Shown here: positions 1 through 64,000 of the stretch, piece by piece
Layout: every line of letters starts with the position of its first letter
How positions within the stretch are numbered: the stretch's first letter is position 1
NCBI GenBank assembly: GCA_030704615.1
Contig: CM060731.1
Span: 22,506,001 to 22,570,000 of the forward strand
From: Takakia lepidozioides
Taxonomy: Eukaryota > Plantae > Bryophyta
DNA: 64,000 nucleotides
Reading direction: 5' to 3'
Translations under genes and position numbers: made by a program
Notes under the pieces: generated by a model
Seen by the model: the letters and a program-made list of their open reading frames with translations, nothing else
The model's database searches: none
Told to the model about the DNA's origin: nothing

Positions 1-1130
1 CCGTCAGGAGAGGAGGAGAGTGTGGGGATTGCACCAGGACCACCTCAATTGTCTCCATTGGACACCACACCTATTGTGTGGCAGTATCCGGATGAAGGCA
101 TTTGTCTTCTGGACTTGTTTGGCGGGATCAGCACCGGATTGGCTGCTGTGTTACAAGCAGGTGTACGAGTTTGGCGTTACCTGTATGTGGAGAGGGATGA
201 GACTGCACGACGCGTTTCACTTCGCCATGTTGCTCAGTTGGTGCAGCGGTACCCTGAGTTGTTGTCGGTGTCTGCAATTCGTGGATATCAGCAGGCCTTG
301 CCACAGACATTTCGTTGCTGGGGGCGCAGGATTTGGAGCGGGTTGGCTCCATTGATCTGGTAGTGGCAGGTTGGCCCTGCCAAGGGCATTCATCATCCGG
401 GCATGGCAATGGATTGCGAGACTCGAGGTCGGGTCTGTTTTGGGAGATGGTGCGGGTTTTGCGCCACTTGCAGCTTCATCAAGCTGTATCTCCAGCATAC
501 ATCTTGGAGAATGTGCCACTGATGGGCGATTCTCGGGCCAGGGTGATGGCCAGTGTGCATCAAGTCCGGTCGTGGCTTGGGTCAGCAGTGTTGCTAGATG
601 CAGCTACAGTGGGGTCACGGGCTCATCGTCCACGGCTATGGTGGACTAACTTGATGCCACCCGCACTGCTCAAGCGTGCATTTGATGGGGTGCAGCGGCC
701 AGCACATCTCACAGTGGATAACATTCTGGACACAGGGAGGCAGTCTCAGCGTGTGAGACACGATGACCGTTCGCCTTTGGCAGTGGTCAACAAGGTGGGT
801 CAACCACGAGCAGCATTACCTACACTGCTCAGCTTCCCAGGATCGCATGCTTTCCGGGATAGTGGACCTGGCCTCCTGTGGGATGCTCAGTTGCAGCAGT
901 TAGTGGAGCCTAATGCTGACGAGCGTGAGCGGGCAATGGGTTTTACCACTGGTACCACGGCGGTGTCGTCTCTTTCTGAGGCATCACGTCGTCAAGTGTT
1001 GGGGCAAGCAATGGATCTCAATTGCTTGACCTGGATTATCAGCTTGGCTCTGGCTGAGCAACGCAGAGTGCGGAGTACACTTCCCTCAATGGTCTCTCTG
1101 CCTACCGAGACGGTACAAGCAGTGAGTGGG
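1..1130 (+). CDS. DNMT3-like C5-cytosine DNA methyltransferase domain of the retroelement polyprotein (one frameshift near 305)
   Basis: ORFs 22-363 and 315-1223 together give the main motifs in unpermuted order: I LDLFGGISTG, II YVERD, IV DLVVAGWPCQ (PCQ 375-383), V SGLFWEMVRVL, VI YILENV (ENV 507-515), VIII LDAATVGSRAHRPRLWWTNL, IX ERERAMGF, X RRQVLGQAM. The reading frame is open from base 1. Confidence 0.9.
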
Positions 1131-1156
1131 GGCGAGCATGTGAGGACCACGGGTGC

Positions 1157-4048
1157 ATGCATCCATGGCACACGTGGGAGGTGCTCGAGGTTCAGAGGGA
1201 GTTGGCAGCCAAGGCGGCTGTGATAGATGAGGTTGGGGATTCTTCTCGGGTTGAGGAGGTCCTCAATGATGAGATGATGGGGCAGGATGAGGTCTTGTCA
1301 TTGACTGAGCAGGCATGGAGTACTGCTCAAGAGGTTGCAGCATAGCAACCACGGGACGCGTCCTCTACCTCTAAGCCCACTGGACTTAAGGTTGTAGTTA
1401 CGGAGGACAATTGGGAGCCTGACATTGGACCCATTGTCACCGGAGGAGAGAGACGACGTATACGGCGGTTCCTGAGGGCTTACAGGAATTGCTTTGCCTT
1501 CAGTCTGAAGGACTTGGGAGCACTGAAGGGTCAAGAGATCCGTATTGAGTTGGCCACTGACACGCCAATCTTTCGGAGACCCTATAGATACAGTGACATG
1601 GAGAGGTCTTTGATTCAGATGAGGACTCAAGATCTCTGGGAGGCAGGTTTGGTGGAGCTCTCTGGTGGAGAGTATGCTTCAGCCACAGTGATGCCAGCCA
1701 AGAAGGATGTCTATGGCAATTGGACGGAGAGACGTATGTGCGGTGATTACCGGCCTGTAAATCGTCAGACCAAGTCCGATAAGTATGCCATGCCAACACC
1801 AGAGGAGATCTTTGATGCCATCGGGCATGCTAAGGCCTTTAGCACTTTGGATTTACGATCCGGATATCACCAGTTGCCAATCAAGGAGGCGGACAAGCAG
1901 AAGACCGCATTCTGGGGGATCAATGAGCACGGCAAGGATTGCCTATACCAGTGGCGGTTCTTACCATTTGGGCTTAAGAATGCTCCTGCAGAGTTTCAGA
2001 GAGTCATGGATAGGATTCTAGCAAGGGTGGACTTTGCTCGGTGCTACATAGATGACATCATCATCTTTAGTGTTACGATGGAGGAGCATGAGAGACACCT
2101 TCAGGTGGTATTGGAGCGCTTGAGAGCGCACGGATTGAAGTTGCATCCGGGGAAGTGCAAGTTTTTCCACAACCAGATTGAGTATCTGGGTCACATGATA
2201 TATCCTGGAGGATTGGGGGTACAGCAAACTAAGGTAGAGGCCATTGCACAAATTCCACGCCCCACGGATGTGAGCCGAGTTCGAGCTTTCATGGGGTTGG
2301 CAAACTATTATAGACGGTTTGTCAAGGGATTTAGTACCATTGCAAAGGCTCTAACCAAGCTGACCAAGGTGGACCAGGAGTGGCAGTGGGAAGATGAGCA
2401 GGAACGAGCTTTTCAAGAGCTCAAGGCGAGGTTGACCTCGGCGCCTATCTTGAGACGACCTATCAGGGGGCGTCCTTTTCAGCTGCATACGGATTGGAGC
2501 ATGTTGGGGCTTGGAGCGGTGCTCACACAGGTGGATGATGAGGGAAGAGAGTTCGTAGTGGCTTACGCTAGCCGCTCGAACAACGCTGTAGAGGCTAAGT
2601 ACAGCTCATATGAGGGAGAGTGCTTAGCTGCAGTGTGGGCCGTGGCACACTTCAGGTGCTATCTATACAGCAATCTTTTCACCCTTGTCACGGATCACCA
2701 GCCACTCAAGTGGTTGATGGAGTCAGACAAGCTTACGGGGAAGCTTGCACGGTGGGCACTTATACTCCAGGAGTATGACTTCCAGGTTGTGCATCGACCG
2801 GGTTTGGTCAATCGGGATGCGGATGGATTGAGTCGCAATCCATGCATGAGCCAGCAGGATGACACTGGAGCTCGGTGGCATGGTGAGACGGACGAGAAGA
2901 TGGTGCCGGGATGGCACGCATCTGCATTTTTGTGTATCTTGGCATGGGGAGGTCAGATTGGACCTACAATAGGGATGACTGTAGACGGAGTGTCTGAGGA
3001 CCTTGAGGCTAGTGATGAGCTAGGTGGTGCCAGAGATATACATGAGGATTCGGCTGTGTTGGACTACCTCCGCACGGGAGACACGGCAGCCATTGTGACT
3101 GCCAGGGAGAGGGATCGGATCCTGCAACGAGCCAAGAGGTTCAAATGGGAGGGGATACACCTACTTCGAGTATGGGAGAATGGTCGGGTGAGGATTGTGC
3201 CTCACCCCACACAGCGTGCACGGTTAGTGCGGCATGCCCATGAGGAGTTGGGGCATTTTGGAGTGCGACGCACTCACAGTTTACTGCAGGGGCAGTATTG
3301 GTGGCGTGGTATGCATACAGAGGTGCAACAGTTCGTGGCTAGGTGCATGGTATGTGACAGGGTGCGTGCTTCATTCAACGCCCCTACACCACAGTTGCAT
3401 CCTTTACCAATCATGGGATTGGGCTACAGGTGGAGTCTTGACTTCGCAGGACCGTTGCCACTGACTATGCGCCACCACAAATATGTGTTGGTGATGGTGG
3501 AGCACTTCTCCAAGTGGATTGAGTTGGTTCCATTGCCTGACAAGGCTAGTGAGGGGGCTGCGTATGCATTCTTGGATCGTGTGCTTAGCCGATTTGGTGC
3601 TCCAACTGAGGTACTCACGGACCAAGGGAGAGAGTTTTTGGGGGAGTTTCAGGCTTTGTGTGATAAAGCCTTGATAGACCACCGCACCACTTCTCGGGAT
3701 CATCCTGAGGCCGATGGCTTAGCAGAGAGAGTTGTTCAGACGGTGAAGAGGGGTTTGCGCAAGTATGGCTTGCAGAAGGGACACCTAGGAGATTGGGATC
3801 TTCAGGTTCCTTGGTTAGCCATGGGCTACAGGTTCAGCAAACAAGCATCACTTGCCTCTTTCTCACCATATTTCCTTCTCTTCGGCCGGATTTGCCTGCA
3901 GCCATTCGTAGGGACACTGCTCAAGTCCTTAACCTTCACGATCCAGACGTGTGGGTACGTGCATGTGATCAGCGTGCAGAGTTGTTCAAGAAAGTCATGC
4001 CCATGGCTTTTGAGAACCTTGCCATTGCACAGCACCGTGATACGTTGA
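1157..4048 (+). CDS. pol: Gypsy pol: linker, reverse transcriptase, RNase H, integrase core
   Basis: ORFs 1157-1345 and 1514-4048 share a frame and are separated by a single TAG (1343-1345). Motifs: RMCGDYRPVN, LDLRSGYHQ, PFGLKNAP, YIDD, LHTDWS, TDHQPL, HEELGH..CMVC, SLDFAGP, TDQG, AERVVQ. Frameshift near 3890. Confidence 0.95.
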
Positions 4049-4473
4049 GGTATGCCACTATACATGGTGGAGGATATCGTCATGGGGTTCGGAGGTTTAG
4101 CCCTGGTGACTATGTTTATTTGCAGCAGACTGCTCCTACGACTCTGGATGTTACTGCAGGGCGTGTTATTCTGAGGGTTCGAGAGGTGTTGCCCTCAGGG
4201 GTCCTGATCTTGGAGGGTCGGGATGGCATGACTTGGAAGGACCATGTGCGTAATTGTGCGTCATGTCACCTTCCCAATGTCGATGGCAGAGTTGACCCAA
4301 ACTTGGCAGTGGTACCTGCAGGTTTGAGGTGCATGCTTTGTGGGTCTGCCAAAGGGGCAGCCACCATGCTGGTGTGTGATCGATGCTCAAGGGGTTGGCA
4401 TATGGGATGCTTGACACCACCTCTTGAGAAGGTTCCTGACGGAGATTGGTTGTGTCCACACTGCTTGGGATAG
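3890..4473 (+). CDS. Integrase C-terminal region ending in a C4HC3 PHD finger (about 4330-4464)
   Basis: CMLC-x11-CDRC-x4-HMGC-x11-WLCPHC immediately before the stop codon, preceded by an SH3-like FSPGDYVYL module. Confidence 0.9.
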
Positions 4474-4724
4474 TGGCAGTGGACATGACTGGAGGCAGCT
4501 AACAAGACATGGGAGGCCAAGCTCATAGGAGTCAATACATGAGATCCCAAGCTCAAGTTCACAGGTTGCAAGACGGCGACTAATGATGGGGCAACTCTTG
4601 CACCCGTCTATCGAGTTTGAGTGTAGTAGGGATAATGGTGGAGGACTTAGTGAGGCTATGGTCACTATCACATCTTGTGGCTACCTGGACTTAGAAGGAC
4701 CTAAGCACCAGCTAGGGGGGCGAT

Positions 4725-4912
4725 TGTGTGGACTAGTGACTGCCATAGTGGGCAGCATAATGGCAGCCTAGTGACTGACTAGTTGTAGCCTAGTGGTTGG
4801 ACTAGTGGTTGGACTAGTGGTGGACTAGTAGTATACTAGTGTGTGGTGTGCACATGTGTTGTGTGGTTTTGGACAGCGATGTAGTTGTGTAGCGATATGT
4901 ATGCGCACGACA
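4725..4912 (+). repeat. Putative 3' LTR of the DNMT-Gypsy element (short, with internal GGACTAGT-type repeats)
   Basis: TG directly follows the polypurine tract. A candidate end ...GCACGACA at 4912 is followed by a shift to AT-rich sequence. The partner LTR is outside the window, so the right end is unverified. Confidence 0.45.
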
Positions 4913-5941
4913 GTATAAATGGACAAACAAATGTGGAAGACTCGCACTCACTAGAACTTGGTGTGTATAATTATGGTAAAAAAATGAAAATAAAAATGGA
5001 GAAACAAATATTATGGAAGAGTCATTGAGACGGACAAGTATTTAAATTAACGACTCGTCGTTGGAACCTAGTCTTAAGATACATAGAAAGCACACTAGTA
5101 CATAAAATTGATAAGTGCATGTGAATTCAAAACAAACGAGAAAAGTAGCGCAAAAAGGAAGGGAGAAGAGATTTGGATTACCATAAGGTCCATAACCATT
5201 ATTGGTTATGTACATTGGATAGTACAATCATATTTGCAAAAGGAATGGTGAGGGTTTAGGGATAAATGCTTAAGGATCTTTTAGGGTAAAGGGTTTAGGG
5301 GAAAGGGTTTTACTAGGATAAGGGTTTACTAAGGTAGGGGTTTTGGTTTAAGTTAGAAATGGACAAACAAACATGAAAGACCGTTTGTCGCTAGACATAG
5401 ACTCGCTTAGAGGTCCAGGAAAAGGAAGAAAACATGAGAGGTATAAGTTAAGGAGTGACAAATTGAAAAGTGTGGCAATAATGATAGGGTAAGGGTCCTC
5501 TTAGTGGGATACCTCAGTTGGAGACTTGGCTTGAGTCAAGTGCAAGCACTGAGAGACGGACTAGAATTGGCGCAATGACGATACATTGAAAAAAAACATT
5601 TAGACCGGATTGGAAAAGAAAGACTCTAGGGGTTGTGCCAGCATTTTGCTTTTTGGGGTGCATTGTCTGTTTTGTAAGCCAGAATCCCCCACACAAATAT
5701 TTATAGATGAACAGAATGTACAGCAGTGCAGAATCCAGCACGTCAAAAAAAAAAAAAAAATTTGAACGTCCACTACCCACTCGAGGTTCAGTGCGACAGA
5801 AACAAAAAAAACAGGAATGATCCCCCAACGCAAACACGAAGGGAAAAAAGCGTAAAGAATTTTTTTATTTTAAAACAGAGGACCGGAAATCACCTCAACA
5901 TTTAGTCCATGGACTGAAAGTGGTTCACAAGAAGGCAACCT

Positions 5942-8900
5942 TCAGATATCTGGCTGAAGGTTAGCCTCCTCCAAATTCGCGCGCGCCTTCACTGCTTCCA
6001 CCGCTGTAATTCTCTTGGTGCTATTTCTTGTCGTATTTTTTCGTGGCAGCATTGTCCACACGACATTGTTCACGTGGATCCTTGAGCAGGATCTGACGGG
6101 TTGTACTCCCAAACTTTTGATCAGCAGTCCCTGTACCTCTCAAAGTCTGAGGGGTTACCTCTTTTCTTTGGTCTCCACCACTTCACCTTCACTTTCTTAA
6201 AATTAAGATCTTCCCTTTCTCGGATGACATTTAAAATTGTCATTCCCATCCAGACCGGGCACGTCGTTGGGTCATGAAGGCGAACGAGCACAAAAAACCC
6301 TTTCTCAATATCCTTGAACGGATTCAAGGGTATTATTGGACGCTCGCACCTAGGGCCACAGTAAGGTTCTGGAACTTCATCCTCATCTTCCATATCTTCC
6401 AGTATCTGTGGCTGGATGCCATCCCTCCGATGGTTTGAGGACCAATTTGTTTTCGGCCAGAATCCCTCAAGAAGCTGAATACGATCCGGAATGTTCTGCA
6501 TTAGCTTATCAAGTTCAGCAAGAATATTTCCCCAGTATTGGTCGTATTGTTCCATTACACCCCGGTAATGATCGTCAAGCAACATTCCATTGGTCCAAAA
6601 ATCTCTATATTTCTTAATACCATTTTTAATGAAGGACTGTTTTTCGGAGGAGTCGTCCCTGACTCCCCATATCGGTCTTCTTGGAACGGCATCTGGGTCT
6701 ACTTCAGGGAGATTTGGAATCCCATCAGGGTTGGACTTCCACATCTTAACGTTGGAGTTTGTAGGAAGCCACTCCAAATCAGTAGAGCTCTGACTTCTTG
6801 TACTTCATAATGGGCCAGCCATCCGCATTCTTAAAAAACCGAAAGACGTGCATCTCTGAGATCCCGACCAAAGCCTCATTTCCATCAAGAGTACAACCAT
6901 TAACAAACTTCTTGAAGTCGGGAACCTCCTGAATAATTTGAGGAATGAATTGCATATCTTGGGAGATCATGAATGACCTCATCAAATCCGGAAGAATGTA
7001 GGTGTTGCGTTCCTTTAGCTTCTTCGAGAGATAGCTAAAAAATCCGTCAATATCCTCATGGGTGTGCCTGACCATGAGAAAACCAAGCTGGATCTCTTCA
7101 AAGACATCTTTGGCAGTGAGGAGGGATTCTTATTGTCCTTGGAGGAGTTGTCCATCTGCAAATAAAGTCGTTTAGGAAGTGGTCGAGCACCACGTTTATC
7201 TTACGGCCTGTAGGGTTTCAGAGCCTCCAAACATCTCGATTTACCTCTCATGAGCGTTTCAAAAAAATCATTTTGAACTTCATTATCGAAAATGTTCCTG
7301 GATTCCCGACATGTCGGCTTTTCCAGTTGACGCAGGCACTGAGCCAGCGACCCAATTGTGAAGTTTGAATTGTCCTTCCAGAACTCAAGAGAAAATTGAG
7401 CGTAAGCTTCATCACCGTGTCTATGCGTAACCATTCTTGTCAATGAGACAGACAACTGACCTAATCCCGAGACCATCTTGTTCGTCGTCTGTAGCCTCGG
7501 AATAGCCATTTTCCTATTATTCATCTTATCGTGAATAATACACAGGAACTCCTCCGGAATCATAGACTCATTCCTCCAGCTATGGTACAGCCTTCTGCAT
7601 GACTCTTGATGTCTCAAGTGTAATCAAACGCCTGCTTATGTGCGACCTGTTCGGAACTCCTCTTAATTTACTTCTTGATCAAGTCCTTCAACATCTCGCA
7701 TTATGTGCACTTAGCAAAGGTGCTTCCGATTTTCCGAACCTCAGAATAAACACGGTGGTGGCGGCTGAAGTCTGTGCCACTTTTGTCGCTTCCAGCACAA
7801 CATTCACCCTTGTTTTGTTTTGGTTCTGTATACGGCTTACAACTGGCTGCGAGACTTTTTTCAAACCGAGAAGTCTGTTCGTCTGCACCCCAACTCCCCA
7901 ATAATGTCAATGTCCACTGGGCAGTGGAGGTCCTACAAAGTGGAAGAACAAGAAAGCATGATGGCATCAACAAGAATAAAATCAGCCACAGTATTATGAA
8001 AAAAGAAAGGGGACAACGAATAAAAGTCACCTCGTTGGACTCCTCTCAAATTCTCTTCCAGTTCATTTCGGGTGGCAAAATTCTCAAATTATCCCGACGT
8101 CCCTCTCCAATGCAACGTGTTTTGTGAGGCATAAGGTCAATATCGGCATTGATAATGGACATAATGTTCTCCTCTGCCTGGGGTATCCCTGTTCAAGGCC
8201 GCTTGACGCCACGATTTCCGCGGAAAGATGACAAACAACCCTCTTTACTGAGCTTTTTGTACTCCATGTACGTTGACCTTCCAATTTCGTGTATTATCCA
8301 CCATGTTTTCTCACAAACATCAACACCTTCTATCGTAACATACGACCTGCGCGATGCCCCTTCCATAATGTGAAGTCGTTTTGAAACATTCAATCCAAGT
8401 TCTCTCTTCTCATCGAATGACGAACCCCAAAATGTAGTACGAATTGCCAAGGTTTTTCTCCAATCAAAATACTGGCAGCACTGAAGCTTGCAGCAAGGTT
8501 TGCTGCTCACCGACCTCACTTCCTCCAAAGTCAGATTTTTCTTGCATTCTTTTTAGTCCCCCAAATTGGATGTTTTTTTCTTCCTATTAAAATGCCTGTA
8601 TGCTACTTTCTTCACGCCTGTACCATGGTCGTCATTCTCCATGTCACTGCATGATCGCATGAAATTTTCGAGATCAACGGAGAGTATTCGGCCATTTTCA
8701 AGAAGTCTTGTTTTTGTTAACGACCATTTCACAATGGACATCAGATAACCGGATTCTCCAGAGATTGTTCTGGTGACCAAAACCCCAACATCGTCCTCTC
8801 CGAGTTTGTCATTCAGAATGATCTCGTTAGGAATGCATGCCTGAATTCGGCCTTCGAACAGGGCGTTTTCGTCCTCCCCAAGAAGAAGACACTGCAAGTT

Positions 8901-9320
8901 TCTCCAACAATCTCTCCCAAGACCTACAGCCGGATCCTCTTCAGTTTCACCGTTGGACGGAATTTCATTGCTTTCAGTGCTTTGTCCTTGATAATCACTA
9001 TCTTCTGTGATGGAATGACATCCCGGGTTTGTTTGAGATGCTGAATCCACAGTTTCATGCGAGTGAACACAAGAGACATCCCACACAACTAGAGTCCCAA
9101 TCGCCTCCTTCAATGTGTCAGTATCTATGTGTCGATAAGGCAGAGGATAGGAGCTGAATGCGTCATCACAAAAGATCATGGTAACTGAAATGGTAGACGA
9201 ACACAAGTGGTGTTCGTGGCAAGTTCCTTCCCCAGAAACATTTAGGCAATCTCCTGAGGCAACCACTGATGGAGATCCAGGAAGCGACAGAAACACCTTT
9301 TGGCCTACTTGGAGCCCCAT
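5942..9320 (-). pseudogene. DDD/E transposase, Sola/DUF7869-like, with N-terminal Tnp1/En-Spm-like domains; disrupted
   Basis: Fragments read PCCKLQCC..RTTFW..VCEKTWWIIHEI, FAKCT, CIIHDKM, LYLQMDNSSKDNK and FLMVRHTHEDIDGFFSYL. There is an intron at about 7886-8029 and several stops and frameshifts. Likely start is MGLQVGQKV at 9320. Confidence 0.7.
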
Positions 9321-12099: not shown

Positions 12100-15000
12100 C
12101 CCCAAATTCCTCACCCAAAAAAGGTCTCTTTCTACCTCCAGACCCTGTACCTTGTTTAAAGATCAGGATGCAAAATTGAGATATCTCCGTAGAAGCACTT
12201 TTGGACTCGGGCGCTTCAGCGTGTTTTATTGACAAAGACTTTGCGAAGCAACACAATTTAACGCTCGTAAGAAAGAAATTCTCGGCCCCTGTTGAAGTCA
12301 TCGATGGACGACCGTTAGCATCAGGAAATATTGACCATGAAACTCGACCCCTTGAAGTGAAGCTTAAAAATCAAGCATCACAGATTGTTTTCAATGTCAT
12401 CCAGTCTCCAACGAATCTTGTGATCCTTGGACTTCCCTGGTTTGTACTTCATAATCCTGACATCGACTAGCGATCACGAAAAATTTCGGCAAGACAAAAA
12501 TGCAAAAGTACCAAAGGTATTCAACCCCTATTTCTTGGAGCTAGAGCCTTCATGAGAGCTACGAAGAAAGACGCGATATTTGCACTTTATGCGACTTCGA
12601 TCAAAACCACAACAGACTAACGTACTTCAACATTACCCACTCAATATCAAGATTTCAAGGATGTCTTCGAGAAGAAAAATGCAGACATGTTGCCAGAACA
12701 TCGACCTTATGATTGTGCAATTGAGTTGCAAGAAGGAGCTCAACCACCATTCGGCCCGATCTACAATTTATCTCAGACGGAGTTGGCTGCTTTACGCGAA
12801 TACATTGATGAAAATTTGTCAAAGAATTTCATTCGACATTCGAAATCACCCGCGGGAGCACCTATCTTATTTGTGAAGAAGAAGGACGGATCGTTACGGA
12901 TGTGTGTGGACTATCATGGGCTCAACAAAGTCACTATAAAAAATTGTTACCTACTACCGCTGATTTCCGGACTCCTCGAACAACTTGGACGAGCAAATTT
13001 TTTCACAAAAATCGACTTGAGATGAGCTTACAACCTTGTACAAATACAAGAAGGAGACGAATGGAAAACTGTTTTTCGCATAAGGTATGGACATTTCGAA
13101 TACAGTGTTATGTCTTTCGGTCTTACAAATGCTCCAGCAATTTTTCAACACATGATGAATGACATCTTTCGAGAATTTTTAGATGACTTTGTAGTCATCT
13201 ATTTGGACGACATTTTGATATTCTCATAGAATGAAGAAAAACATGGTCGCCATGTATGCCTTGTCCTTGATAAATTGAGGGAAAAAAGACTATATGCCAA
13301 GTTGGAAAAATATATTTTCCACCAATCTGAAGTCGAATTTTTGGGCTACATTATTTCCGACAAATGAGTCTTTATGGATCAGAAGAAAATACAAACCATC
13401 ATCGAGTGGATTAAACCAACTTCGGTCCGAGATGTACAATGTTTTCTAGGATTTGCAAATTTCTATAGAATCTTCATCAAGGACTACTCCAAAATTGCTG
13501 CACCATTAACACGACTCACATGGAATAACAAATTTATATGGGACGAGAAGGCTGACCAAACATTTGAAAGGCTGAAGCAGACATTTACAACGGCTCTAAT
13601 ACTGGTACATGCAGACCCATCTAAACCATTTTTTTTGGAAGCAGATGCATCAGACTTTGCACTTGGCGCGGTACACTCTCAATACGTTGCAGATGGCCGA
13701 CTTCACCATGTTGGTTTTCGTTCTTGCAAATTTTCTGCTGCGGAGATCAATCATGAAATCCATGACAAAGAACTTTTAACGATTATCGATGCTTTTGAGG
13801 AGTGACGTCATCTATTGGAGGGAGCTTATAAACATCAGGTCACTGTCTATACCGATAACAAAAACCTCGAGTATTTTATGAGTGCTCGTGTTTTGAATTG
13901 ACGTCAAGCAAGATGGAGTATGTCACTAGCAAGGTTTGATTTTGTTATTACCTACCGTCCCGGACATCTTCAAAGAAAACTAGATGCTCTTTCTCGACGA
14001 TCGTATCTTGCGCCAAAAGAAGGGGATGCAACTTTTGACCAACAGAAATCCATCATCTTCAAACCAACAAATCTCCAATTGAATATGTTATCCATGTCCA
14101 CCTATGACAATGTAGAGATTATAAAGGAGATTCAGGAAGCACTGAAGAGCGACCAATTTGCCACGACATTACGAAGTCAACTAAATTGACCTCGAGACAA
14201 CCCACATGTTACAAATGACTTCGAATTCAAAGATGACTTACTTTATTTCAAGGGACTTCTCTATGTACCACCAGGACCTACACGACTTCGAATTCTTCAA
14301 ATATGTCATGATGTTCCGACTGCAGGACATTTCGGCTTCAACAAAACAATGGAATTGATATCGAGTGACTATTGGTGGCCGTAGATGTGGAAACTCGTGA
14401 AAGAATTTATAAAATTTTGCGACACGTGTGCTAGAGCGAAGGGACCACGACATCGACCTTACGGCCTTCTTCAACCATTACCCATTCCCAAGGGTCCATC
14501 GTCGTCCGTGTCTATGGACTTTATTACGAATCTTCCAATTTCCAATACCACTGATTCAATCCTTGTTATTGTAGATCGTTTTACAAAGATGACACATTTC
14601 ATTCCGTGTAATAAGACGGTTACCGGCGAGGAAACTGCAAGACTCTTCCTCAATATCAAATTTCTGGAGGGGATTATTTCACATATTGGATACTAAGATC
14701 AACCTCTCTACATCTAATCATCCACAGACTGATGGTCAAACCGAACGTATAAACCCAGATTTTGGAACAGTATCTTCGCTGTACGATAAATTATCACCAA
14801 GATAATTGGACGGACCTTCTGTCATTAGCTGAGTTTGCATAAAACAACATCATACATTCTTCGACAAAGCAAACTCCATTTTTCTCCAATTATGGTCATC
14901 ATCCTCGAGCAAACTTTTTCCACATGAAGATTGTTGGAAGCCCTGCTGTAGAAAAACTTGCTACTTATCTTGCTACAATTCACAAGGAACTTACATTCCA

Positions 15001-23769: not shown

Positions 23770-25010
23770 GGTAGCTCTTACCACTGTCCATGTGCTCGTT
23801 TATCCTGACTTTAGTCTACTTTTCTTACTTCAAATAAATGCTAGTGATCTAGCTGTCTCTGCCATTTTGAGCCAGGTACTTCAAGACGCCTGGACAAACA
23901 TGAATGAAATTACAGTATCACAGACAATGAAGGCTTGGCTGTCATTTTCGGGGTCAAACATTTTAGGCAATACTTACATGGTTGTCATTTCTCTGTTGAG
24001 ACGGATCACCTTCCTTTGAAGGCCCTCAAGACGCCTCGAGAATTATTTGGTCGGCTTGCTCGTTGGTCACTCATACTACATGGATTTGAGTATGATATAG
24101 TCTACAAAGAATGCAAGGAAAACAACAATGCAGATGCACGTCTGACCCGTACTGAAACTAAAATTCCTACATCTTATCTCATCTTGGATGACTTGTACGT
24201 ACCTTAGGACATAGCTGTTAAAAGGGCAGCAACAGTAGCTCCTTCTGCTCAAACTTTCCACAACCTTTTAGATGAGCTCCCACGCTCTATGGATTTGCAG
24301 TCCAATTGGGATCTCATCAGCTTTGCTGTTGGCTAAATTCTATCGTGTGTTGGTGTGTGTGGGAGTATGGTTTGTGTAGATCAGCTCAGACATGCTCTCT
24401 TTCCTTTGCAGCTCACTGTTCTTGTTGAACATGGTGCCTTTTCTTGTTGAATCCTTTCCCTGGAACTAGTACTTCAAGGACCATGCTGTGATGACGAAGA
24501 TCCAGAATGTGGTGCAGTAGTCATTGCAGGAGCTCATTGAGGCGGGCACTCCTGTCAACCTATAACTAACCCACTGTTATTGGGCCATGTCTAGAACATA
24601 GTCGATTGATGATTGCATATATGCAACCTTGCTCCATAAGTGCAAGACCGACACTCAGCTTCCTGGCCGCATTGCCAAGGCTACTCAGCGGCAAATTTCC
24701 TATCATTTTCCCTATCATGAGGAGCGTGAAGGCAAATTGTTCTCAAGATAATTGTTTTGGAAGGTCTCACTCATGCTATGGAGGTTCCAAGTATGAGTTC
24801 ATTACCTGCTTTGCTGGAACTCTTTCATGCTTCAACATATGCGGGTCACCTTGGTGTGACCAGAACCATCAAACGGTTACATGAGGTATACACATGGAAA
24901 GGAATGACCCGGGATGTCTCAGACTTCATTGCTAAATGTGTTGAATGCCACGCCAAAACTTTGCTCCCTAGAGCTCGAGCTTCGAGCTTTACCTCACAGA
25001 ATCTTATTTC
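23770..25010 (+). pseudogene. Highly degraded Gypsy pol remnant (RNase H and integrase zinc finger)
   Basis: LVYPDFS..LQINASD, GVKHFRQYLHG..VETDHLPL..GRLARWSL, FHASTYAGHLG..WKGMTRDV..CVEC. Confidence 0.75.
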
Positions 25011-29600: not shown

Positions 29601-32600
29601 TCAAGGACCTGGACCTGGATCCGCAAGTCTTGACCCTGCTGGATAAATCTGACTTAGAGGCTGTAGTGTCCTCAGCCATGTCTGTTGCCATGAGATTGTC
29701 TGATGAAAATGAAGTTAGGCAGAAAACTTCCCTGAACTTGTTTCCAGTCTGTGACATGGGGGAGGACATCTTGGATGACCTCAAGGGTCTACCCACCCTC
29801 GGCACTAGACTGAAATTTAAACTCAGGGCAGGAAGCCTACCTTTGAACAGCAAACAGAAGCAGAGAGGAAAGGGAGAGTGCAATTGCCCGTTGTGTGGGC
29901 AATCTGAAGACAGTATTCATTTTCTGATACACTGTCCGGGGTTCTCTCACCAAAGAGACGCTCTCTTCAAATCTATTAAGGGAATTGTGCCTGTACCCCT
30001 GTTTACCAACTTTGAAAGTCTCGAGGCTGAGCCAAAAGCCCAGGCCCTCCTGAGGCCTAGTTTTTGGGCAAATCACACACAGCAGATTGATGCTTGTGTG
30101 AAGGGATTTCTAGAGGATATCTGGAAAACCCGGATTAATTCTTTATATGGAGGTAAGTCTTACTACCAACGTCAGCGCTGACAGAGGTAGGTTCTGTCCC
30201 TTTTGTTCCCGCTCAAACTGGGCGCGGGGTCAATGGCCACAAGGCTACGGCAAACAACGTCTTATGAGTACAATCTGTAGTTGAATTGCTGTCCTGTTTG
30301 TCCCACTGACCCTGAAGGTGGAGATCTGGGAAAAAAACGAAGAATGTGAAGTATAGTATTGAAGATTCTTAAACTCTTCATGTGAGGTTTCTTTCTTTTT
30401 TTGGCTCTCTCCCTCTTCTCTCACTTCACATCGATCACACCTGGGTGTCACATCTGTCTATGCCATGGGGCTAGCAGTGCTGTCTTGTGTTCTAGCATCA
30501 TGTTGATTCCAGCCCACTGTGGCTTTGTGCGAGTGATATGGCAAATTTGGGCAGAGTTTCCATATCCTGGTGGGTAGAAACCCCACACCTGCATCAAGGA
30601 GTGTTCATGCGCCTTGTAGAGGATATGTCATAGCCAACATTCACATGGAACAGGCATTTTTAGGCTCAGTAGCGAGATGGGGGGTTGGTGTCAGGGTAAG
30701 ATGAGCTGTCTGATGATCAACGACCTTGATGCGGGGATTGGTCGATTTGGTATGACTCTTTAGGCAAGTGCTTCAAGTTTTAAGGTTTTATCATACCTTA
30801 CATCCTGGCATTTTCTCTAGGAATGTCTCCTGCTGTTATTCGCTTCTCTTGGAAGCTATTTTTGTTTCAGGGCTACATGTACGACTCACTGCTAGTTTAT
30901 TACTTCCTGCCAGTCACTTACAATGTCATCTACATTGTCTTATGCGTGGAGTGGCTAGGTAGCATAATCTCAAAGGGGCAGGGAGCAAGAACTGGAGGTG
31001 AGCAGTACCGGAGAGGACTTTGCATGGAGGCTGGCACATTTAACAGGGAATCTTTTGTTTGCATGTTGGGTGGAGTGAGCAGCAAACACGCAGATGACAG
31101 TGAATAACCAGATGGTGGTGGGCACACTCATGAATCTGGCAGATAATCCGACCCGTGTCAGTGTTGGCCAGGTTTGGAGGGAGGCTGATATCGTGAACCG
31201 TGTGCCCATTATCTGCACTGGAAATGACTTCTCCACCCTCTGGGCTCCGCTAATCAGGGATGGGCGTATGGACAAATATTATTGGTGCGCACTAGTAGTT
31301 TCTGATAACGGGCATTCCAGCACAGATGGCTTCCTATTTTCTGTGTCTTCATGAACTGAGTGCACAAGAGAAGATATTTAGGACGACAATTTGTGCTATT
31401 AGGTCCTTTGTCTTCCTTTCCCTCTTTTCCTCCCTTTTTCTGCCAGAGTGGGCAGATAAGTGGGATGGCCGCAACCATATGGCAAGCGAAGGCTCTCTTC
31501 TCTTTCTTCTCTTTCTCTTTCTCGGATTGGTTTTATGTTGGCCTGCCCTTCTACATCCCTTCCCCACTTCTCCTCATGTCTATGGATTATTCCTGCTGTT
31601 GCTTTTGGGGGTCTGACTGTGCTAGTAAAATCTTAGCTTGCACTTATAAGGAACCCTATGATGGTGGGTCTGCAAATGGGTAAACTATTTACAATCTCTT
31701 GTGCTGAATTCCAGGCAGCCAACAAGAGAGGATTTGGTCAACATTGTTCATCAAATGTACTGCCGGGATGGCCTGACTAAGGAAGACATTGGTCGAATCA
31801 TTGACACCTTCCCCAATCAATGTAAGTCCTTCAAAAAAAACTTTGTTATTTTTAGGACAAGCCCATACATACCAAGGTCCAAAAGAAGTCTGATTCTTCA
31901 TGCTATTCTAGATTCATTCTTTCAGAGATATCTTATGAATATTCATGAAATATTCTTTAGGTTCATTCTTCTTCCTGAACCGATATCAGTTTCACTGACT
32001 TGTATAGAAATGACACAGCACTGGACTTCTATGGTGCTCTACGGTCAAGGACTTACGACGTGCACATTCTCAAGGTATGCCTATCATTTTTGTGTCCTAG
32101 ATTTAAGTACAGAATGGACTGTCCAGAAGCGATTCAAATTCCTCGGAATGTCAGTGATCCTCTCTCTGTACCTAACGTTGTTTGTCTCATTAAAGCTCCA
32201 CTCTAAACATTTCTTGGTTGGGGAGTGATCCGAAGCCTCAAGGATGACTTAATTGAGGGCTCAGATATGGGATTCAAAGAAAACTGCAGAGACTTTGACA
32301 AATCAACTGGGAGGATGGCTTGCCGGTAATCTGCTCCCTAACTAGAAACGCATGTGGAGGTATTGAGGGATGCTGACATCCCTCTGTTGCTGAATCCTGG
32401 CTGCAGTGGGTGGAGGAGATAGGAGGATCTGAGAAATTGGGAGAGAAACTGCTCCGCAGAAAGAAGGATGAGCCCCTTCCCACGTTTGTGCCACCTACGG
32501 TAACACTTCTCTTTCCTTCATTCCCTCCTCGTGCAAGTGGGAGTTCACTGTATTTGACATACGATACTTGATTGGAGCCCAGATAATGTAGGCATTAGAT

Positions 32601-45395: not shown

Positions 45396-48300
45396 TCAAC
45401 GCTTCTTCCGTTTTTGAGGTCGCCCTTTGAAAACTGCAACCGCCTCGGATGCGTTTCCCATTTCTGAGGCACGCACCCAAGATGCTTCCACATGATGATA
45501 GCCCTTCCATTTGACGAGATACTCCGTTTCTCGGTTCTTGAACCTCCTCGACTTAAGTACTGCCTCCACCTCATACTCAAGTTCATTTTCATGATCCAAC
45601 AGCACAAGTGGCGGACGCAACACTTGATGCCGATTCAGACGCGCTTCATCTTTGAAGTAAGGCTTCAAAAGGGAGACGTAGAATACTGGATGCACCTTGC
45701 TGTTTGCCGGCAGTTCCAATTCATACACATCCTCATTCATAACCTTCCGGATGCGAAAGGGTCCCGCATATGGAGGTACGAACTTTGGACTCACTTCCGG
45801 AGGTAGTCGGAAATTCTTGATGTTCAACCAGACCTCCGTGCCTACCTCAAACTTCACTTCCCTCCGCTTCCGATTCGCCTGTCTTTCATACCGTTTCCTA
45901 GCTTTGGCAATGTTGTACTTTGCGAGCTTCAACAAACGCTCGCGTTCTTCCAGTACCGCCGCTACTGCCGGTTCATCAACGTCATGGGCGGCCCAACTTG
46001 TCGGCACCAGAGGTGCTTTTCCATAGACCAATACGAAAGGGGAAACTCCCGTTGCGGAGTGTTCTGTGTTATTATAACAGAACTCTGCCGCGTCTAAGTG
46101 TTCCACCCAGTCTGTTTGGTCTGCCGACACGTAATTCCTCCGAGATCTGCTTCACTACGGAATTCACTCTTTCCGTTTGGCCGTCGGTCGTAGGTCGGAA
46201 GGCGGTGCTCATCTTCAGCCTCGTCCCCATCTTCTTCCAAAGTGCCCTCCAAAATTTACTCGTAAACTTTAGATCGCGGTCCAAGACAATATCCTTCGGG
46301 ACTCCATGATGCTTTAAGACGTGGGCGAAGTAAAGTCACCTTGTTTCCTGCGCCATTGCCGTCTCCTTGGTGGGGTGAAATGGCCCATTTTACTGAACCT
46401 ATCCACCACCACCATGATTGCATCGAATCCTTTTGACAGCGGCATAGCAGTCATGAAATCCATCGAGACGCTTTCCCAAGTCCCCTCTGGAATCGGCAAG
46501 GGTTGTAACAGCCCCGCTTGCTTTTTGTACTCGCTCCGGTTTTGTTGGCATGTGGTGCATGTCTTGACATACTCCTCTGCCTCCTCCCTCAGTTTGGGCC
46601 AGAAATACTCTTTCTTCAAGAGTGTCGCAGTGCGCTTGGCTGCGCCGTGGCCTGCAAGCGGGCTATCATGGCATTCTCTCAAGAGGCTATCTCTGATCCC
46701 TCCCTTCGGCACGTAGAGACGCTTTTGCTTATACCGGAGCAGTCCATTTTGCAAGTGAAACTGCGATTTAACCCCCATCCTCAAGTCCTGCATCACGGAC
46801 TTCGCCAGCTCATCCTTCCGGCAAGCCTTCCGGATCTTCCTTTGGAGCGCCGTCTCGCCCCTGTTTACCAAAAAAGCTGCTGCTTTCTACTTAAGGCATC
46901 GGCCACCACGTTGTCCTGTCCCAGTTTGTACTGGATATCCACGTCGAACACCGCCAAAGTATCTTGCCACCTAAGTTGTTTTGGGGACAACTTGGGCTGC
47001 GTGGCAAAATACTTCACCGTGACATTGTCCGTGAACACCTTCACTGGGTTGGAACCAACATAGTGGCGCCAAAGCTCAAGACAGTGCACCACTGCCTTCA
47101 TCTCTTTCTCGTGCGTCGGCCACCGTCGCTCCACTTCATTCAGTTTCTTATTTTCGTAAGCCACTGGGCGTCCATCTTGCATCAGTACACCCCCAATCCC
47201 GAAGTCCGACGCATCTGTATGAATCTCGAACGGACGATCGAACTCCGGGATTTTCAAGACTGGAGCTTCCGCCATCCGCTGCTTCAATTCAGCAAAAGCT
47301 TGGCTACAAAAGGTGTTCCATGCCCAGACTTTGGATTTACACAGAAGGTCTGACAGCGGCCCCGCGATCTTGGCGAAATTTCTCACATACTTCCGGTAGT
47401 AGGAGGCGAGTCCTAGGAAGGATCGCACTCCCGGGACCGAAGTCGGAGGCTCCCAGTCCAAGATTGCCCTCACCTTCCTGTCATCTGATCCCATCCTGTG
47501 TAATCACATGCCCCAGGAACTCCACTTTTGTGACCCCGAATTCGCACTTTGAAGCTTTGGCATACAGCTTCCCTCCCGCAATTTCTGGAACACCCTTTTG
47601 AGGTGCTCCAGGTGCTCCTCCTTTGTTTTCGAATACACCAAGATGTCATCGATGTACACGATCACAAAGTCATCCAACCACTCCTGGAAAAGGCTGTTCA
47701 TCATCGTGCTAAAGGTCGCGGGAGCGTTGGTGAGTCCAAAAGGCATCACCAAGAACTCATATGAACCATACCTTGTCTTGCACGCGGTCTTCTCCTCATC
47801 TCCTTCCGCCACTCAAATTTGATGATAGTCGGAGCGCAGATCGATCCGGCTGAAATACTTCGCTCCTGCCAACCGATCGAAAAGGTCGTCGATCCTTGGC
47901 AAATGGTACCAGTTTTTTATAGTCACCTTATTCAAAGCCCTATAATCGACACACATCCGCAGCGCCCCATCCTTCTTGTCTACGAATAGCACCAGGGCTC
48001 CATAAGGTGACTTACTCGGCCGGATGTACCCCTTTGACATTAGATCTTTGAGCTGAGTCTTCAGCTCGACCAACTCTCTGTGGCTCAACCGGTAGGGCGC
48101 CTTGGTAGGCGGTTCCGATCCCGATATCACCTCAATCTTGTGGTCAACTCCTCTTCGCGGTGGCAAGCCACTTGGTAAATCCTCCGGCATCACATCTTGG
48201 TATTTCTCCAAAATCCCCTTGATCCAATCTGGGCTCGGCTCCCCATTGCCTTCTCCCTTCACTTCTCTAATATAGAGCAAAAACTGGGGCTCGTGTGCCT

Positions 48301-49949
48301 CCTCCACGGCCCACTTCCTTGCTGACAGGAGGTTTATTCGCCCTCCCACGGGTTTGGGCGTTTCCGACACTCGTAAGACCTCGCCACCATTCCCACATGG
48401 CAGCGTGACTACTCTCTTGCGGCCATCTATGACCGCTCCGGATTTGCTCAAAAAGGTCATCCCCAAAATGAGATCCACTCCATCGATCTCGCAGATGGTG
48501 AAGTTCTCACGTCCCTCCCAACTCCCCAGTTGAAGAGGAACATCAAACGCCAACCTTGTCGCCAATTGCGGTTCTCCTTTGGCAGAACGCACCTCAATAG
48601 AGGCCCCACGTCACTTGTCGGGAGTCCCAGCTTTTGTACTGTTGCCGGTGTCATGAAGGAGTGCGACGCTCCTGTGTCCACCAACAACGACACGTTAGTT
48701 CCGGATATTATCCCATCCACGAACAATAACTGACTCCCTTTACGTAAGGCGCCAGTTTCCTGATACAACTCACAAGAAAATTTGCCTACCTTGCAAGTCC
48801 TGGCGACCACCGCTTCCACCAAGCGACTGATGGTATCTTCCGACAGCTCTGTGGTCGCCCGAGTCATGTTCAATTGCCGGGGCTTCGTGCACTTCTTGGC
48901 CGTGTGCCCGGGCTCCCCGCAATTGAAACACACTCCATCAAAGGTCGCCTTCTGTCCGCCATAAGCCGCTCCACCCGCTTTTCCTTTCGAAGCACCGGGT
49001 GCCGCCTTGACTTGTGAAGGCCCTCCCTTCGATTTCCACGTGCCATTGTCGCCGCGTGGCCTATCCCACTACTTTTCCGGTCGGAAGGAGTCACCTTCCC
49101 GCCGGGTCTTCTTGTGGTTCAGCTCCGTACGGCCTTGTCTTTCACCCTTAGGGACATCCGAGAAACATTCAGCCCTCTCAATTGCCTCGTTCAAAGTCTT
49201 AGATGGCTTCTCCTCCAACTTCCGCCTGGCCCATGGGGCCAGTCCCGCCACAAAGTTGAAGACCATTTCTGGTTCTGCCATGTCCGCGACTTCGAGCAAC
49301 AACACATTGAAAGCCTGGACATATCCCCGAATGTCATCTGTTTGCTTCAAATTCCTCATCTTGTCCCAGGCGAGCCAGGACGCGTTGAGGGGCACAAACT
49401 GCCTCTTCATCAATTCCTTGAACCCACTCCAGTTCAAGGTTTCCGGGCATGGACCTCGGTCGTGAAGGCGTTTTGCCACCATTGTTGAGCATAGCCCCTC
49501 AAATAGGTGGGACCCACTTCCACCCGATCCTCGTCACTCAACTTGGCCGCCCGGAAGTACTGCTCCAGCTCCAAGAGCCAGGTGTTGAGTGCCTTCCAAT
49601 TTCGGACGCCCTCGAAGGTGCCGGGTTCCTTCGGCTTCACCTTAAACTTTGCCTTAGTGGAAGTGGTATTAGCCGCCTTCAACACATCTTTCAACGTCCC
49701 GCCAAATTGCGCCAACAACCCTTCCCAAAAGGCTGCCGGCATAGGAGGCATCTGTTGGTCGGTCGGAGCTCTCAAGGATTCCTCAGGCTCCGACTCCTCA
49801 GATTCCTCCCGCTCATGAGCGGCCTCGTTTTCGGAAACATGCATCGCTTCCTTAAACGGCCGCCTCGGTGACACGTCGCCCCCATCGGGCTCACCAGGAT
49901 CATCATCTTTTGGGCCGTTCCGCTTTCGCTTTGGCTTGCCCGACCCCAT
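45396..49949 (-). pseudogene. gag-pol: gag-pol with C-terminal chromodomain; several frameshifts and stops
   Basis: KPKEPGTFEG, CFNCGEPGHTAKKC, LVDTGASHSF, YIDD, HTDASD, CHDSPLAGH..CTTC, SMDFM, and the chromodomain EYEVEAVL..EYLVKWKGY..ASW. Confidence 0.93.
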
Positions 49950-60764: not shown

Positions 60765-60819
60765 CTTGGTATCAGAGCTTAGAGTTCAGTAGGCGATCGT
60801 CCTTGGGATTGGCCTCATC

Positions 60820-63800: not shown

Positions 63801-64000
63801 ATACTTTGGCGGTGTTCGACGTGGATATCCAGTACAAACCGGGACGGGACAACGTGGTGGCCGATGCTTTAAGTAGAAAGCAGCAGCTAATATTGGTGTA
63901 CAGGGGCGAGACGGCGCTCCAAAAGAAGATCCGGAAGGCTTGCCGGAAGGATGAGCTGGCGAAGTCCGTGATGCAGGACTTGAGGATGGGGGTTAAATCG
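60820..64000 (+). pseudogene. gag-pol: gag-pol of copy B (frameshifts, a stop in RT, protease motif DTE)
   Basis: ORFs 60820-61827, 61834-62166, 62299-62826, 62766-63173 and 63177-63872. Confidence 0.92.

Follow-up and report, generated by a model that had tools for sequence, protein, structure and literature searches.

Chromatin reading by transposons is, in the textbook case, the work of integrases tipped with a chromodomain, which choose the landing sites of new copies. In chromoviruses such as MAGGY (cited in the available text of preprint 10.1101/2021.11.30.470311), this small chromatin reader stands right after the SH3-like domain of the integrase. The same preprint, in its bulk account of PHD-transposon fusions, reports PHD and Chromo domains joined to reverse transcriptase (RT) and integrase (IN) domains, and the available text of PMC8557442 describes the PHD finger as an accessory domain common among transposons of Chlamydomonas. 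Elements that carry a cytosine methyltransferase are known as well. KnitGypsy-Dnmt3 of Klebsormidium nitens (PMC5890265) is described as a Ty3/gypsy element whose pol includes, ahead of RT, a DNMT3-like domain in unrearranged form, and the legend of Figure 4c in that paper gives its group a DIRS-like arrangement of terminal repeats. The name "Gypsy-DNMT3" for these elements of streptophytes is used in the available part of preprint 10.64898/2026.05.21.726589.

The element considered here is of this already published type (Gypsy-DNMT3 of streptophytes; PMC5890265). As to the PHD finger at the end of its integrase, the word "PHD" is absent from the available text of PMC5890265 and of its three supplements (figures aside), the words "PHD" and "Marchantia" are absent from Neumann 2019 (PMC6317226), and a literature search, with figures, Repbase and subscription journals outside its scope, turned up no account of such a finger in Gypsy-DNMT3 elements. 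What is added here is the typing of the finger at the level of residues, the evidence of selection upon it, and an argument that ties it to the function of the integrase. Taken as a whole, this is a well-supported but modestly new case, from a family that has been partly described before.

The element and its relatives

The window (the whole stretch of 64,000 nucleotides of Takakia lepidozioides that was analysed) begins inside a Ty3/gypsy LTR retrotransposon of the streptophyte Gypsy-DNMT3 group, a liverwort-type member of it. Positions 1 to about 4900 on the plus strand hold the 3' three-quarters of the element, the 5' part lying off the start of the window, and the G+C content drops past about 4900. 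The features found are collected in Table 1. RT, RNase H and IN follow one another within the window in the order of a Ty3/gypsy pol, and the order of the element as a whole is (gag-PR)-DNMT3-like-RT-RNaseH-IN-PHD. The protease can be seen upstream of the methyltransferase in a relative (P0082), the corresponding 5' part of the present copy lying outside the window. A search for repeats in positions 1-9000 found only a 28-nt family of three copies, downstream of the element, and a tblastn search of the window with the three ORFs of the element found no second copy that carries this PHD, only other gypsy elements.

Table 1. Features of the Gypsy-DNMT3 copy at the start of the window, numbered from the first nucleotide of the window.
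Feature	Position	Strand	Basis or remark
DNMT3-like C5 cytosine methyltransferase domain	1..1223 (match ~100-1223)	+	PF00145, E 3.3e-12
DNMT motif I, LFGGIS	115-132	+	translation
Frameshift, 1 nt missing relative to other family copies	303..304	+	runs X1, X5, X6; frame 1 to frame 3
DNMT motif IV, GWPCQ	369-383	+	translation
DNMT motif VI, LENV	504-515	+	translation
Frameshift, 1 nt missing relative to other copies	1150..1151	+	frame 2 (the RT frame) downstream; translation of 1151-1516
Sole in-frame stop between DNMT and RT	1343..1345	+	frame 2
Reverse transcriptase	1730..2200	+	PF00078, E 1.5e-33; residues 73-229 of ORF 1514-4048
RNase H	2387..2776	+	PF17917, E 1e-34; PF17919, E 5.8e-32
Integrase zinc-binding H2C2 domain	3206-3370	+	PF17921, E 2e-16
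Integrase catalytic core	3425-3706	+	PF00665, E 5.2e-14
Frameshift, 7 nt missing relative to other copies	3884..3885	+	contig of run X12, and loose ends in runs X1, X5, X6
Integrase C-terminal region	3943..4263	+	predicted long helix 3943-4065, then five-strand SH3-like barrel 4111-4263 (AlphaFold2 model)
C4HC3 PHD finger	4330-4464; two residues (L-G) more; stop 4471-4473	+	PF00628
3' non-coding part of element	4474..4606	+	still genome-repeated; family contigs reach ~4606, where other copies diverge

The methyltransferase has motifs I, IV and VI in unrearranged order, and in the subfamily to which the window copy belongs the catalytic motifs are intact. Its closest solved structures are DNMT3A and DNMT3B, at E values of about 1e-7, followed by M.HhaI. 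The best protein matches to the element come from Marchantia polymorpha (75-78% over the PHD tail and 69-72% over the DNMT), and the next from Calypogeia (Calypogeia fissa), Sphagnum and many environmental sequences, with M. polymorpha and C. fissa together spanning 69-78%.

The kinship with the K. nitens elements is evident from several comparisons. The RT-RNaseH-IN part of the window copy is collinear with that of K. nitens KFL_009030040 at 48% identity (385/801), and the two methyltransferases are 45% identical (113/249). The DNMT of the window copy lies in one frame with RT once 1-nt gaps are allowed, and in relatives the two share a single ORF. An integrase tree was constructed with FastTree from 70 rows, with the PHD columns excluded, the broken window copy not among the rows, and local SH-like support values. 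In this tree K. nitens P0058 and the nearest relatives of the window copy, P0005 and P0007, fall into one clade with 99% local support, and the same clade takes in all 23 rows with a terminal PHD outside the chlorophyte type and five rows with a DNMT before RT. The K. nitens proteins that were retrieved end before the PHD or have a degraded one, unlike a 79%-identical relative (P0145) in which the PHD is present.

A second set of gypsy elements, with the order RT-RNaseH-DNMT-like-IN-PHD, occurs in chlorophytes (Chlamydomonas reinhardtii, C. eustigma, Volvox, Pleodorina, Tetrabaena, Monoraphidium and Haematococcus). They are homologous to the element of the window in the integrase tail, the PHD and the DNMT-like domain. 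They differ from it in the place of the DNMT-like domain, which lies between RNase H and IN, in the frequent alteration of motifs IV and VI (many have ECQ or ACE rather than PCQ in motif IV, and ENT or ENA in place of ENV), in an acidic loop of the PHD, and in the 50-490 residues that follow the PHD.

State of the copy in the window

The window copy is dead. Relative to other copies it has suffered three frameshifting deletions, and it has one in-frame stop besides. Copies were compared by aligning contigs from public sequencing runs (X1, X5, X6 and X12) to the window; the family is very abundant, with 54,307 contig pieces in run X1. As the copy now stands, the methyltransferase is read in frame 1 to about position 303 and in frame 3 beyond, RT through IN in frame 2, and the PHD in frame 1. 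The last of the deletions leaves the integrase core in frame 2, apart from the C-terminal domain and the PHD, which are in frame 1.

When the three missing stretches are restored, one long frame runs from the methyltransferase to the PHD, interrupted by the single stop between DNMT and RT. That stop may be either a mutation or the natural boundary between ORF1 and ORF2, because relatives occur both as one ORF and as two. The single-ORF relatives are P0020, P0066, P0068 and P0077, the first of which is one ORF of 1516 amino acids with DNMT, RT, RNase H, IN and PHD. The two-ORF relatives, with both ORFs on one contig, are P0082 with P0012 and P0074 with P0008; in them gag-protease-DNMT comes first and RT-RNaseH-IN-PHD second.

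The copy is broken, and no PHD-bearing integrase is made from this locus. The first-pass annotation had placed the PHD finger in the same polyprotein as the methyltransferase, a claim that holds for relatives such as P0020 and fails at this locus, where three frameshifts and a stop come between them. Run X12, which is possibly an RNA run, has two contigs (2173 and 1205 nt) about 92-95% like the element; they represent another copy and may equally be DNA.

The PHD finger and its predicted ligand

The last reading frame of the element (frame 1 of 3793-4473) has zinc ligands in the spacing C-x2-C-x11-C-x2-C-x4-H-x2-C-x14-C-x2-C, that of a canonical C4HC3 finger, with the first Cys codon at 4330 and the last at 4462-4464. 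The match to PF00628 covers residues 180-224 of the frame at 42.7 bits, as compared to a cut-off of 24 (E 5.5e-11). The C4HC3 PHD originally proposed at 4330..4473 is therefore confirmed, its coordinates exactly, and so is the reading of its core as CDRCSRGWH, with Gly two residues before the His (position His-2) and Trp at His-1.

The finger starts about 22 residues past the predicted five-strand SH3-like barrel, which itself comes after the integrase core. It had been suggested that this is where chromoviruses carry their chromodomain. The window holds a chromovirus of its own, at 45399-46151 on the minus strand, with SH3_Tf2-1 and then Chromo, and comparison with it bears the suggestion out, the Chromo domain being at the equivalent place. 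Pfam gives no Chromo match at the integrase C-terminus of the Gypsy-DNMT3 element, and the PHD is found there instead. The element is thus like the chromoviruses in having a small chromatin-reader domain right after the SH3-like domain, and unlike them in that the domain is a PHD rather than a chromodomain and that its predicted ligand is the unmodified N-terminus of H3 rather than H3K9me.

An AlphaFold2 model of the last 195 residues, built from an alignment of 39 sequences (mean pLDDT 85), consists of the long helix, the five-strand SH3-like barrel and the PHD. Over the PHD (residues 141-195) blocks of ten residues have mean pLDDT values of 80-96, rising to 94-96 from residue 161 on. The whole model, when submitted to Foldseek, matches the cassettes of Tudor/SH3-like barrel plus PHD in PHF1, MTF2 and UHRF1, with poor rmsd. 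The modelled PHD alone superposes on solved PHDs at 0.5-1.8 A, among them DPF2 (5b79), DPF3b, BAZ2A/B (some of these with unmodified H3), ATXR5 with H3 (5vab; TMt 0.86), BHC80 (2puy), MOZ, CHD5 and UHRF1. A cross-braced PHD fold is accordingly what the model predicts.

To judge how regularly the finger accompanies the integrase, I considered 377 relatives pooled from protein searches. A full C4HC3 motif lies within 90 residues in 273 of the 285 relatives that have at least 52 residues past the integrase tail, and the 12 without a full motif include copies with single substitutions of a ligand. In an exhaustive search the number of cluster representatives came to 262 at E<=1e-30 and to 1074 at the looser limit of E<=1e-10, and most of the best 150 align over both the integrase tail and the PHD. 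Two strong matches among the representatives (P0308 and P0327) were rejected as members of the family, as they have four tandem PHD fingers and no integrase.

There are 126 relatives with RT, IN and PHD, and 94 of them have a DNMT in the same protein: 90 between RNase H and IN (the chlorophyte type) and 4 before RT, as in the element of the window. The other 32 proteins lack a DNMT; 22 of them have the look of a second ORF, whose DNMT would be found in the ORF upstream. In both architectures the PHD follows the C-terminal domain of the integrase. Two relatives have the order RT-RNaseH-DNMT-IN-PHD-Chromo, with PHD and Chromo in tandem.

Variation among genomic copies was assessed over the 141 nt of the PHD, within an alignment spanning 4290-4620. 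There are 13 variable sites. Ten are third-position synonymous differences, the codon of the His ligand included; one more counts as synonymous provided that its two changes are linked, as their equal depth suggests; and the remaining two are K>R or K>R/M at positions other than ligands. The probability of finding at least 10 of 13 synonymous, when 22% of possible single changes are, is 4e-5, a count in which the contigs are not independent copies and which lists only differences present in at least 10% of contigs. The substitutions point to a PHD under purifying selection, or constraint. Subfamilies differ in the loop that follows the first CxxC.

The class of reader to which the finger belongs was sought among proteins of known structure. 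There are 98 sequence matches in PDB at E<=0.01, and all 60 listed are PHDs without an H3K4me3 cage: CHD4 PHD1/2, KDM5A/B PHD1, PHF12, ATXR5, DPF2/3, KMT2C/D, PHF21A/BHC80, WSTF, BAZ2A/B, ORC1b, UHRF1/2, KAT6A/B, AIRE, CHD5, BRD1 and RCO1 are among them. ING, BPTF and TAF3 were not found among those 60. By both sequence and fold the finger thus groups with readers of the unmodified H3 tail, ATXR5, BHC80 and MOZ among them, as the first-pass annotation had proposed. The solved PHDs nearest to it (KDM5A/B PHD1, CHD4, ATXR5, BHC80, BAZ2A/B, AIRE and UHRF1) all read that unmodified tail.

The Trp of the ING cage presumably sits at His-2. At the two cage positions the PHD of the window has Gly (His-2) and Arg (before Cys1), with no aromatic residue at either. 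The same is true of nearly the whole family, where His-2 is Gly in 139 of 156 PHDs and aromatic in 2, and an aromatic residue precedes Cys1 in 1 of 156. The cage of ING3, by comparison, is described in the available text of PMC5000080 as a Tyr before Cys1 plus a Trp.

Residues that may contact H3 were assigned from ungapped alignments to the PDB matches, with the roles of the residues in KDM5B PHD1 and in ATXR5 taken from the available text of PMC4225485 and of preprint 10.1101/2020.10.15.341198, respectively. By this comparison D196 corresponds to KDM5B D328 and ATXR5 D41, which form a salt bridge with H3R2, and an Asp after Cys3 is found in 145 of 156 family PHDs. The residues corresponding to the H3A1 pocket of KDM5B (L325, P347, G349 and W351) are L193, P215, G217 and W219, and the P-x-G-x-W motif they belong to is found in 110 of 156 family PHDs in its strict form and in 150 of 156 in a loose one. 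The strand that pairs with the peptide, M192-L193-V194, is kept. Set beside KDM5A/B PHD1, ATXR5, BHC80/PHF21A, BAZ2A/B, AIRE and CHD4 (2mny, 7klo, 5vab, 2puy, 4q6f), the finger is 38-46% identical, and it has in common with these readers the C4HC3 fold, the lack of a cage, the Asp after Cys3 and P-x-G-x-W.

The site for K4 is less orthodox. The acidic contact that KDM5B makes with K4 is also used by BHC80 and AIRE. In the finger of the window, Ala176 takes the place of D308, the residue that holds the K4 amine in KDM5B; Ala189 stands opposite KDM5B E321, and Ser199 opposite ATXR5 D44. At the positions of the ATXR5 residues that contact unmodified K4 (V23, G31 and L37) are L178, A186 and M192, all conservative changes. 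Unlike KDM5B, then, the PHD of the window appears to be without the acidic K4 contact, and its K4 site would be most like the small hydrophobic one of ATXR5. Acidic residues are also missing from the loop that follows the first CxxC; of the 156 family PHDs, 114 have two or more there, and these are mainly of the chlorophyte type.

The alignments and the model give good support to the prediction that the finger is a cage-less reader of the N-terminus of H3. Strict specificity for unmethylated K4 is less certain, and it is less secure for the subfamily of the window copy than for its algal relatives, because the acidic K4 contact is not kept and the loop has no acidic residue. The class of cage-less PHDs also includes K4-insensitive readers (UHRF1, matched by both sequence and fold) and binders of other partners. 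Given Ala176 and the non-acidic loop, a reader like UHRF1, dependent on R2 and A1 and tolerant of K4 methylation, is therefore possible as well.

Proposed integration targeting and other possible roles

The role predicted for the finger in active copies is to bring the integrase to nucleosomes by way of the unmodified N-terminus of H3, so that insertions would be biased away from promoters marked by H3K4me3, and I consider this moderately probable. The PHD would contact H3 A1, R2 and probably unmethylated K4, and it would hold the intasome on nucleosomes with free A1/R2 tails; active promoters marked by H3K4me3 would then be disfavoured as new insertion sites. Three parts of this are predictions: that the finger binds H3, that methylation of K4 blocks the binding, and that binding directs integration, the last by analogy with the chromodomains of chromoviruses. 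The bias would be mild rather than a precise address, because most of any genome lacks H3K4 methylation. The DNMT3-like enzyme would likely act separately, for example on new cDNA or the provirus, and not where a PHD aims it; action of the element's methyltransferase on new cDNA or provirus is the proposal of de Mendoza 2018 (available text of PMC5890265). If integration targeting is correct, a cage-less PHD in a large and old family would be a second, independent solution to the problem that chromodomain-tipped integrases solve, and one with the opposite logic, in which the integrase reads that a promoter mark is absent and not that a heterochromatin mark is present. Since the elements carry a DNMT3-like enzyme too, they would offer a compact natural system in which to ask if one transposon is able to select the site of its insertion and also to mark it.

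Reader and writer may be more closely coupled than this. The ADD domain aims animal DNMT3 at chromatin unmethylated at H3K4, and the PHD might do likewise for the element's own DNMT3-like enzyme, by way of an uncleaved polyprotein or a pre-integration complex, a route that would be compatible with integration targeting. Such a pair of reader plus writer was proposed at the outset, and its co-occurrence is indeed conserved: DNMT and PHD are in one protein in 94 of the 126 relatives and on the same contig in the ORF1/ORF2 forms, the chlorophyte architecture puts the DNMT directly before IN-PHD, and the enzyme is DNMT3-like with its catalytic motifs intact in the subfamily of the window copy. The steering of methylation fares worse. 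In the clade of the window copy the DNMT and the PHD are some 1100 residues apart, with RT, RNase H and IN between them, and retroelement polyproteins are normally cleaved. The DNMT has changed its place within the lineage, whereas the PHD has never left the integrase, and for this reason I prefer a role in targeting integration to one in steering the methyltransferase. The PHD is kept even in chlorophyte relatives with altered DNMT motifs IV and VI, and its value would therefore be independent of a canonical DNMT. That the PHD aims the enzyme, by either route, thus seems unlikely. A broader proposal is that an old green-lineage clade of gypsy elements, spanning chlorophytes to liverworts and mosses, keeps a DNMT3-like writer together with a PHD reader of unmodified H3, so that the logic of ADD-DNMT3 has been re-created within a parasite. 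Nucleosomes unmethylated at H3K4 would hold the intasome, and the fresh insertion would be methylated by the enzyme that the element brings with it, the landing site thus being first chosen and then marked. I regard it as conceivable, though doubtful.

Two further roles for the finger were weighed against integration targeting by way of unmodified H3. Many PHDs read H3K4me3, and for some gypsy elements of animals whose integrases end in a PHD, targeting through this mark has been proposed, with insertions going to active promoters. For the present finger this is very improbable: it has no cage, with Gly occupying His-2, Arg preceding Cys1 and no free aromatic residue elsewhere, and neither the 60 listed PDB matches nor the top 50 fold matches include a reader of H3K4me3, except for UHRF1 with a K4me3 peptide. 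It is also rather improbable, if less so, that the finger is no histone reader at all and serves as a zinc-stabilised module for contact with protein or nucleic acid, as with a host factor or in the assembly of the intasome. Some PHDs do have non-histone partners, and the acidic residues that contact K4 are missing in the subfamily of the window copy. However, the residues for H3A1 and H3R2 are kept across the family (the Asp in 145 of 156 PHDs, P-x-G-x-W in 110 strictly and in 150 loosely), and in two relatives the PHD is paired with a chromodomain.

Methyltransferase and reader domains in the relatives

In the chlorophyte-type relatives, such as the proteins from Chlamydomonas eustigma (P0048) and C. 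reinhardtii (P0206), a DNMT-like domain lies between RNase H and integrase, and its homology spans the whole length of the domain. Motif IV is often ECQ or ACE in these proteins and motif VI often ENT or ENA; several of the domains went undetected in the Pfam search. Two environmental gypsy polyproteins, P0201 and P0241, have the domain order RT-RNaseH-DNMT-IN-PHD-Chromo, and so carry a methyltransferase domain together with two putative chromatin readers in tandem.

The integrase tail and 3' end of the PHD element

A C-x2-C-H motif follows the SH3-like barrel and precedes the PHD finger in the PHD element (the degraded Ty3/gypsy copy at the start of the window). Amongst 39 aligned relatives, its second cysteine is invariant and its histidine nearly so, while the first cysteine is sometimes lost. 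Farther downstream, a run of short near-repeats precedes the drop in G+C at about 4900.

Surroundings of the PHD element

Further gypsy fragments occur at 12.7-14.7, 23.9-25.0 and 60.8-63.9 kb, and the PHD element therefore sits in a transposon-rich stretch. The window also holds a separate chromovirus-type element, with zf-CCHC, protease, RT, RNase H, integrase H2C2, SH3_Tf2-1 and Chromo domains, the last at the integrase C-terminus. The open frame with the short RuBisCO activase match may represent a host-gene exon.

Features in the window, with positions and strand
Feature	Position	Strand	Remarks
C-x2-C-H motif	4255-4272		residues 124-128 of the frame 3886-4470
Near-repeat run	4760-4830	+	units like ggactagtg / gactagt; 3' non-coding part of PHD element
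Gypsy fragment	12744-14690	+	RT/RNase H piece
Gypsy fragment	23878-24984	+	RT/RNase H piece
Open frame	31662-32225	+	short match to RuBisCO activase helical domain (PF21228, E 4.3e-07)
Chromovirus-type gypsy element	45399-49068	-	broken into several frames
Gypsy fragment	60793-63872	+	gag/Ty3 capsid and RNase H; extends toward window end
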